From Polyangiales bacterium (GTDB taxonomy: Bacteria > Myxococcota_A > Polyangia > Polyangiales > Polyangiaceae): 64,000 nucleotides of DNA. The stretch spans positions 64,001 through 128,000 of the forward strand of contig JBBRLQ010000016.1 in the NCBI GenBank assembly GCA_038231275.1, given 5' to 3'. The notes beneath the pieces are model-generated. The model was not told where the DNA came from and searched no databases. It was given only the letters and a program-made list of their open reading frames with translations. Shown in pieces: positions 35,519-35,962 of the stretch (positions are counted from its first letter, which is position 1; each line of letters starts with the position of its first letter). A program made the translations under genes and the position numbers.

Positions 35519-35962
35519 TCAGGGCACGTGGAACGCGTTGCAGGTGCCGTGGTGCTTTTGGTAGCCGTACCAGGAGTTGAGGCCGCCCGAGTCGTAGACC
35601 TTCTTCGCGCACGCGGCGTTCGTCGCCGGATCGAACAGCTCGCTGCGCGTCACGCCGCACGCGTGGAGCCAGATGCGATCGTTGATCTGGAAGAGCCCGT
35701 AGTCGACCGAGCCGTTGCGGTTGGTGTTCGTGGCCCTCGTGAAGTAGCTCGACTCGTACTTCGCGGTGCAGACCATCTTGGGGACGACCGACTCGTGGAA
35801 GCCGGCGTCGCGAAGGAGCTGCGCGATGTGCGAAGGCGTGAGCTGCGTCCCTGCGAGGAGCGGCGCGACGTCTTCGGTGGTGCCGGCTCCGTCGTCAGCG
35901 GAAGGATCCTCGCCGCCACACGCGAAGAGAGGGAGTAGCAGTGCAAGAGCGATTCGCTTCAT
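35519..35962 (-). CDS. Lipoprotein with c-type lysozyme (GH22)-like domain
   Basis: Lipobox LFAC; [34 protein letters not shown]...CAKKVY...GLNSWYGY matches c-type lysozyme, including both catalytic acids. Confidence 0.85.
   Translation of the reverse strand: [147 protein letters not shown]

Follow-up and report, generated by a model that had tools for sequence, protein, structure and literature searches.

Does a bacterial gene that reads like an animal c-type lysozyme belong to that enzyme family, and if so, where did it come from and what might its owner use it for? These questions are raised by one gene in the 64,000-nucleotide stretch of DNA analysed here (the window), from Polyangiales bacterium, a myxobacterium of soil or sediment; it is a complete coding sequence on the minus strand at 35519–35962 that has an ATG start and 147 codons plus a stop in the list of open reading frames (ORFs) and that matches the Pfam family Lys. 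The c-type lysozymes make up glycoside hydrolase family 22 (GH22), whose CAZy entries are, in the relevant part of a paper on a GH22 structure, 'almost all from Eukaryota' (PMC6887759). An original prediction, made from the letters of the window, had proposed a lysozyme of this class anchored as a lipoprotein, and the 34-letter string that it quoted is residues 65–98 of the minus-strand ORF at 35519–35962. The same 147-residue product is present, identical, in the protein collection as P0001.

A bacterial c-type lysozyme with a predicted lipid anchor

Judged by its sequence and modelled fold, the protein is a genuine member of a bacterial c-type (GH22) lysozyme family, and its likeness to lysozymes lies, at the sequence level, far beyond chance. 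The best Pfam family was Lys (PF00062), with 63.7 bits at an E-value of 2.5e-17 (cut-off 27), residues 45–137 matching positions 7–112 of the 123 in the profile. SLT_3 (PF18896) followed 23 bits lower, at 40.4 bits and above its own cut-off of 27, the two profiles overlapping on the conserved core. The SLT profile (PF01464, GH23), which the original prediction had proposed to set against Lys, stayed at 18.5 bits and did not reach its cut-off of 21.3, and NCBIfam gave sub-threshold matches only (IagB, 16 bits; RpfC, 13 bits). Longer members of the family behaved in the same way, 18 of the 18 tested having Lys as their top Pfam match above the cut-off; the C-terminal extensions of those of ~230 residues gave no Pfam match. 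A phage-endolysin reading was dropped, there being one weak PHROG 'transglycosylase' match (E 6.5e-4) and no phage genes nearby.

In a phmmer search against PDB chains, the best 60 matches listed were all c-type lysozymes or alpha-lactalbumins. The top match was the lysozyme of the silkworm Bombyx mori (2rsc/1gd6; 76 bits, E 2e-20), whose alignment runs gap-free across residues 44–100 of the query and holds 19 identical positions within one 21-residue stretch. Hen lysozyme (132l) scored 49 bits, which bears out the closer likeness to insect lysozymes that had been put forward. Query residues 62–136 were aligned to positions 27–113 of the hen chain with an offset of 35, so that C65, E70 and D87 correspond to C30, E35 and D52; this correspondence is read from the alignment offset. 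For the fold, an AlphaFold2 model was built on an alignment of 36 bacterial-type homologues and one butterfly lysozyme (P0074), 37 rows in all (alignment A1). Its mean predicted local distance difference test (pLDDT) score was 88, with 97–99 in the domain and at least 97 from residue 41 onwards. When compared with the PDB in Foldseek, all of the ~47 top rows shown were again c-type lysozymes or alpha-lactalbumins, and the best was Bombyx lysozyme 2rsc, at a target template-modelling (TM) score of 0.80, a root-mean-square deviation of 1.5 Å and 42% identity. The c-type lysozyme likeness first noticed in the letters is thus found both in the Pfam match and in the fold.

The GH22 domain, as delimited by AlphaFold2, Foldseek and Pfam, spans residues 35–147 (35522–35860) and contains the cysteines C65, C102, C118 and C141. 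These four are invariant in alignment A1, together with G54, E70, S71, N81, D87, G89, Q92, N94 and W131. E70 (codon GAG at 35753–35755) and D87 (codon GAC at 35702–35704) are present in 37/37 rows and are aligned to the catalytic residues of the Bombyx enzyme, which makes them, as predicted, the equivalents of the general acid Glu35 and of Asp52 in hen lysozyme. In the hen enzyme, Asp52 is the catalytic nucleophile. N81, N94 and W131 are what we take to be the equivalents of hen Asn46, Asn59 and Trp108.

Aligned with the butterfly lysozyme, C65, C102, C118 and C141 fall in the columns of Cys30, Cys76, Cys94 and Cys115. The Cys6 column is occupied by Ser44 and the Cys80 column by Arg106; the Cys64 column lies within a 7-residue loop deletion, and the protein ends ahead of the Cys127 column. 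The four-disulfide set of animal c-type lysozymes is therefore incomplete: bridges 30–115 and 76–94 are kept and bridges 6–127 and 64–80 are lost, both partners of each lost pair being absent, exactly the pairwise loss that the original prediction had described. This set is a hallmark of the animal subgroup and not of CAZy GH22 as such, and the pairwise loss is, from the sequences compared, a family trait, exactly four cysteines being found in 75 of the 79 de-replicated bacterial-type domains.

What the protein has in common with the animal enzymes (Bombyx 1gd6/2rsc and hen) is the fold, with 42–43% identity to the silkworm lysozyme, the Glu/Asp pair with the Asn and Trp residues surrounding it, and the two core disulfides 30–115 and 76–94. 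It differs from them in carrying, where they have a eukaryotic signal peptide, a lipoprotein signal followed by an acidic tether, in lacking disulfides 6–127 and 64–80 along with the seven residues of the deleted loop, in having Ile at the Trp62 equivalent, and in stopping before the last animal helix and cysteine; the gene differs in its predicted sigma54 regulation and in its place outside the animal clade, to both of which we return below.

By its N-terminal features the 147-residue product is predicted to be a bacterial lipoprotein. Substrates of signal peptidase II follow the lipobox rule, and the segment encoded at 35918–35962 has a positive charge, a hydrophobic stretch and a lipobox ending in Cys15, the predicted lipidated residue 1 of the mature protein; these features were read directly from the sequence. 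Residues 16–34 (35861–35917) form a linker of 19 residues with six Asp/Glu, no Lys/Arg and an isoelectric point of 4.05, which appears disordered from its composition and low pLDDT (52–59 over residues 1–30). The Cys15 column is kept in most Polyangia-type homologues of alignment A1, in line with the lipoprotein call of the original prediction, and a lipobox-like N-terminus was found in 30 of the 70 de-replicated full-length family members.

Relatives, selection and origin

A search for proteins of near length returned 75, namely 73 of the bacterial type (the window's own included), one butterfly lysozyme and one SLT_3-like protein, the family members being named 'hypothetical protein', 'lysozyme C' or 'transglycosylase SLT domain-containing protein' by their sources. 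An exhaustive representative search gave 1467 proteins at E ≤1e-3 and 284 at E ≤1e-10, among them long multi-domain proteins such as one of the blowfly Calliphora vicina. Among species-representative genomes, 17 loci at 41–86% identity were found in metagenome-assembled genomes (MAGs) of Myxococcales and Polyangiales, in Labilithrix (for L. luteola DSM 27648 on its closed chromosome, NZ_CP012333.1, with the homologue inside 2914098–2926517), in Silvanigrellales and Pseudobdellovibrionaceae, and in one MAG labelled Pseudomonadota. Within the phylum, PF00062 was found in 3/401 genomes and the A1 profile in 4/401, all of one GTDB family, in which 3/29 genomes other than the source genome matched the A1 profile; these counts are from samples, and the A1 search scored nine first-look candidates per genome. 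PF00062 was found in 0/14 control genomes. By these sequence searches, the bacterial group is sizeable but patchy, covering Polyangia and Bdellovibrionota, and the gene is a rare accessory one within the phylum.

Bacterial GH22 sequences have been tabled before, in the relevant part of a 2019 review of bacterial cell-wall hydrolases, which gives 'GHF-22, IPR001916, PF00062' with no structure and with Labilithrix, Frankia and Enterococcus (PMC6403190). No characterised bacterial GH22 enzyme was found in full-text searches of the openly accessible literature. The original prediction had allowed that the protein might belong to an already described bacterial family, and this is so in one respect, PF00062 having been listed for Labilithrix in the part of that review concerned, and not in the other, no characterised member having come to light.

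The SLT_3 proteins of bacteria and phage-like elements (L018–L044) are like this family in being bacterial and in having an ES motif and a DYGLFQIN strand. They mostly lack the two conserved disulfides, four of the five domains displayed having 0–1 Cys, and they score 40–67 bits with the bacterial GH22-type profile, compared to 128–172 bits for its members. The weaker matches in MAGs of Nitrospirota, Saccharimonas, Dojkabacteria and Actinomycetota are of this SLT_3 type, with the exact DYGLFQIN strand and the ES motif, and in Nitrospirota the SLT_3 domains sit at the end of larger proteins of ~260 residues. Another set, obtained from metagenomes and metatranscriptomes (P0126, P0169, P0178, P0197, P0204, P0210 and P0215), has GH22 domains with 9–10 cysteines and signal-peptide-like N-termini, and mixes bacterial-type motifs (AGFPES, MVC-AKYESS, WYGY-H-EC) with extra animal-type cysteines; from its sequences, this environmental group looks eukaryotic.

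The gene itself bears the signature of purifying selection in its sequence. Relative to L001, an orthologue with 86% identity from a MAG of Myxococcales, nonsynonymous divergence (dN) is 0.090 and synonymous divergence (dS) 0.483, a dN/dS of 0.19, which agrees with the claim of the original prediction that a folded protein is being maintained. An unrelated metagenome study yielded a 561-nt contig that spans 35524–36067 at ~96% identity with 14 coding differences, 10 of them synonymous; the other four bases give A5V, E18A and S107A, none at a conserved site. The GC content at third codon positions (GC3) is 0.87, inside the 0.81–0.94 range of the listed candidate host ORFs, and the codon usage is thus host-like, as had been said. 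The genome is a 9.28-Mb draft in 164 contigs (94% complete, 3.3% estimated contamination), and it carries a second copy of the lysozyme on another contig at 55% identity.

To place the bacterial sequences relative to the animal ones, we extracted the domains with the family profile and de-replicated them at 62% identity for the bacterial type, 58% for animals and 70% for SLT_3. A quick tree held 119 rows, with 79 bacterial-type rows below 62% identity; a careful tree, from which five outgroup rows of great length (L034, L036, L037, L041 and L043) were left out, held 114 rows and 118 columns, and its bootstrap was not fully settled. The 22 animal rows, which represent Lepidoptera, Diptera, Hemiptera, a crustacean, a bird and multi-domain fly proteins, group together as a single clade (support 100/99, and 100 in the quick tree) on a stem of 0.8 changes per site, and no bacterial row lies inside it, so that the phylogeny suggested in the original prediction excludes every bacterial row from animal GH22. 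The animal clade joins five environmental rows (P0126, P0204, P0176, P0182 and P0208) at 95/98. When rooted on SLT_3, whose proteins lie on the outgroup side of a weak split (80/58), animals and environmental rows together fall within a 65-row set (91/91) that includes the Polyangia-type sequences and the window gene, and the remaining bacterial-type rows, a Silvanigrellales sequence among them, fall outside that set.

What can be said firmly is that neither insects nor any other of the animal groups sampled were the source of the bacterial genes. The lepidopteran character of the best PDB matches (76 bits, against 49 for hen) and the 19 of 21 positions shared in one stretch would fit a recent horizontal transfer out of an insect or some other animal; since the bacterial sequences lie outside the 100/99 animal clade, this extra insect likeness is no evidence of such a transfer, and we consider the acquisition very improbable in view of the long animal stem (0.8) with no bacterial row inside it, the host-like GC3, the bacterial lipobox and sigma54 promoter, and the depth and diversity of the bacterial group, with its 79 de-replicated rows below 62% identity. 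The original prediction had named two origins, of which the bacterial clade is supported by this placement outside the animals and the acquisition from animals is not. Hardly credible at all is the idea that the gene is contaminating eukaryotic DNA or a chance ORF in GC-rich DNA. The assembly is indeed a draft of 164 contigs with 3.3% estimated contamination, but the gene lies within a contig of at least 128 kb between typical bacterial genes (TonB receptor, response regulator, dienelactone hydrolase), a second paralogue is present in the same genome, homologues are found in the closed chromosome of Labilithrix luteola, and a chance ORF is at odds with a dN/dS of 0.19.

Could the transfer have run the other way? 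Bacterial monophyly was found in 0/200 bootstrap trees; it is not rejected by the approximately unbiased (AU) test (p 0.538), in which the free tree even came out 2.3 log units worse than the constrained one, so that eukaryotic GH22 may be either the sister of the bacterial sequences or nested among them. One tentative scenario, which we hold to be possible but rather less than probable, is that the animal c-type lysozyme is of bacterial origin, the two-disulfide enzyme being near the ancestral form, acquired by eukaryotes from predatory bacteria, and disulfides 6–127 and 64–80 being added later. If true, this would parallel the proposal made for the g-type lysozymes (GH23), of which the myxobacterial and metazoan ones have been linked by horizontal transfer (PMC11576321, PMC12855814). 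The relevant passages of these two papers do not report bacterial c-type lysozymes. They describe a comparable case, in which predatory myxobacteria hold near relatives of an 'animal' class of lysozymes; it differs from ours in being GH23 and not GH22 and in having Myxococcus, Corallococcus and their relatives as hosts, and not Polyangia/Labilithrix.

The promoter region and the genomic setting

Directly before the lysozyme start codon lies a predicted sigma54 -24/-12 promoter, a call that is supported by its conservation in orthologues and paralogues. The consensus of such promoters is TGGCAC-N5-TTGCW, and CGGCACGTCGGTTGCT, at 35975–35990 on the minus strand, agrees with it at 10 of 11 positions, with the -24 GG and the -12 GC both present, 10 nt apart, and its 3' end 12 nt before the ATG. 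It is located inside the 191-bp gap between the lysozyme gene and the upstream minus-strand ORF. Exact matches to GGCACG-N4-TTGC number two in the 64-kb window, and with one mismatch 5 were found compared to 7.2 expected; the rarity of the motif within the window proves nothing alone, and what counts is its position and conservation. The second exact match is GGCACGGCGGTTGC, at 53638–53651 on the minus strand.

The loci L001 and L002 have the same motif at the same distance from the start, again with 10/11 positions, and 9/11 versions are present upstream of L005, L008, L009 (Labilithrix luteola) and L012. Altogether, 6 of the 16 homologous loci have the motif upstream, always between -215 and -277 nt relative to the catalytic Cys codon, compared to ~0.7 loci expected by chance (these loci having a background rate of 0.096 hits per kb and strand), and rpoN is present in the genome. 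The sigma54 control that had been proposed from the letters alone is thereby strengthened, through the 10/11 match, its conserved position in L001 and L002 and the presence of rpoN.

Further upstream, at 36059–36083, is a palindrome with a perfect core, GATCCAG-C-CTGGATC (36064–36078), ~82 nt upstream of the -24 element. As an inverted repeat whose core is kept, as GGATCCAGGCTGGATCC, in the upstream region of L001 despite a dS of 0.48, it is a candidate site for an activator of sigma54 to bind. The -12 element ends 12–14 nt before the start codon in each of three loci (35964–35990 on the minus strand of the window; ~5973–6003 in L001; ~5962–5994 in L002). Because the element is so near the start codon, a sigma54 transcript would have a leader of 2–3 nt that lacks a Shine-Dalgarno sequence; provided that the spacing is the usual one, the sequence thus suggests a nearly leaderless transcript starting 2–3 nt before the ATG, near position 35964 of the window.

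The lysozyme gene lies among ordinary bacterial genes. Convergent with it, at 31844–35163 on the plus strand, the gene of a TonB-dependent receptor is tightly packed with those of a YfiR/HmsC-like DUF4154 protein and of a CheY-type, single-domain response-regulator receiver; a dienelactone hydrolase and an AhpC/TSA protein are also encoded nearby. The same-strand ORF directly upstream of it (36154 to ~37040, minus strand) gave no Pfam match at E ≤1e-4 and overlaps a plus-strand ORF, the 3' part of which is the dienelactone hydrolase. A soil metatranscriptome contig covers 36152–36289, the 3' end of this upstream ORF, at ~93% identity with 10 differences. Just 3' of the lysozyme stop, at 35436–35503, is a GTCGG-rich stretch that is matched by many short contigs of several metagenomes, their summed depth rising above the surroundings; it is probably low-complexity sequence common to unrelated GC-rich organisms. 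More distant, at 25082–29308 on the plus strand, a 1408-residue protein resembling carboxylic acid reductases combines AMP-binding, phosphopantetheine carrier and NAD_binding_4 domains.

Proposed role and its alternatives

What might such an enzyme be used for? The reading that we favour, with reasonable though far from full confidence, is that of an exported, lipid-anchored and active muramidase with Glu70 and Asp87 as its catalytic pair, switched by sigma54 and directed at other bacteria while displayed at the cell surface or on outer-membrane vesicles; we infer both its muramidase activity and its predation role from sequence and model. The precursor would be exported by Sec and lipidated at Cys15, and the Gly at position +2 makes sorting to the outer membrane probable, from where the domain would hang on its 19-residue acidic tether. 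It would hydrolyse the beta-1,4 bond between N-acetylmuramic acid and N-acetylglucosamine in peptidoglycan, following the same retaining Glu/Asp mechanism as hen lysozyme, with products predicted to have reducing ends and not 1,6-anhydro ends. Transcription by sigma54 together with some enhancer-binding protein would yield an almost leaderless mRNA. The target would be the walls of other bacteria, attacked from the cell surface or from outer-membrane vesicles, rather than the producer's own wall during housekeeping growth, a use that we consider the most likely because the gene is rare and accessory and because the host groups contain predators.

The principal alternative is housekeeping wall remodelling, in which the lipoprotein would act on the producer's own sacculus, as Mlt/EmtA do in E. 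coli, for growth, division or envelope machines. The layout is compatible with this, for the outer-membrane lipoproteins MltA-E/EmtA (GH23/GH102/GH103) are likewise small lipoproteins with a glycan-strand-cleaving domain of the lysozyme superfamily, here joined to a lipobox by a short tether, and the fact that no inhibitor or immunity gene was found is as expected for an enzyme acting on its own cell. It is set apart from the Mlt lipoproteins by its score below the SLT cut-off (18.5 against 21.3), by its invariant Asp nucleophile, which is absent from lytic transglycosylases, and by being rare and accessory (4/401 genomes of the phylum, 3/29 other genomes of its own GTDB family) where theirs are core genes; it is also monocistronic, has a sigma54 promoter and lies outside any cell-wall or division cluster. 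We therefore regard a housekeeping role as unlikely, albeit as the most serious of the competing readings. Less likely still, and in our view improbable, is a GH22 fold that has adopted lytic-transglycosylase chemistry or another substrate (chitin, chitosan or de-N-acetylated peptidoglycan). This would accord with the SLT_3 cut-off being passed and the SLT cut-off nearly reached, with the weak PHROG 'transglycosylase' match (E 6.5e-4), and with the replaced Trp62 equivalent and shortened loop. That the specificity of a predator's lysozyme can be altered is illustrated, in the passages concerned, by DslA (Bd0314) of Bdellovibrio bacteriovorus, a secreted lysozyme-superfamily enzyme which resembles ours in having two disulfides and differs from GH22 in being a GH23-like Glu:Glu enzyme (PMC7511926). 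Altered chemistry sits poorly with the equivalents of Asp52, Asn46 and Asn59 being invariant across the family, and with a Lys profile score 45 bits above that of SLT.

Several observations weigh against a sigma54-switched muramidase aimed at other bacteria. On the side of the enzyme, the Trp62 equivalent is Ile97 and the 64–75 loop is shortened, which makes the substrate cleft differ from that of the hen enzyme; the protein also passes the cut-off of SLT_3 (40.4 against 27), a bacterial lysozyme-like family of undescribed chemistry, and one family member is labelled 'transglycosylase SLT domain-containing protein' by NCBI. On the side of its regulation, the sigma54 motif is missing upstream of 10/16 homologous loci, no activator gene adjoins the lysozyme gene, and the sole metatranscriptome run matching the stretch covers 36152–36289 only, outside the lysozyme gene. 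As for the target, predation is known from the host groups in general and not from this genome, and if the lipoprotein faced the periplasm of its producer, it would look like one of the housekeeping Mlt lipoproteins. Finally, no neighbour is conserved, any one being common to at most 3 of 18 family loci, close relatives (ORFs within 3.5 kb, compared all-against-all), and the 94%-complete genome gave no match to the inhibitors MliC/PliC (PF09864) or Ivy (PF08816) at E ≤0.01; with no inhibitor or conserved neighbour gene found, protection of the producer lacks a candidate gene.

From the sequences compared, the two-disulfide bacterial GH22 lysozymes are a distinct subfamily, often with a lipoprotein anchor and, in some Polyangia, driven by sigma54, which has been visible in databases under names such as 'hypothetical protein' or 'SLT domain-containing'. 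Work on folding and engineering could draw on this diverse branch as a naturally minimal c-type lysozyme, in which all of the catalytic machinery goes together with just two disulfides. A sigma54 promoter abutting the start codon would be unusual, since it would give an activator-dependent and nearly leaderless transcript. The branch also bears on the origin of the animal c-type lysozymes, a question already raised for the g-type. For the bacteria themselves, the enzyme is a candidate predation weapon of Polyangia and Bdellovibrionota, with Labilithrix luteola DSM 27648 as one cultured host.

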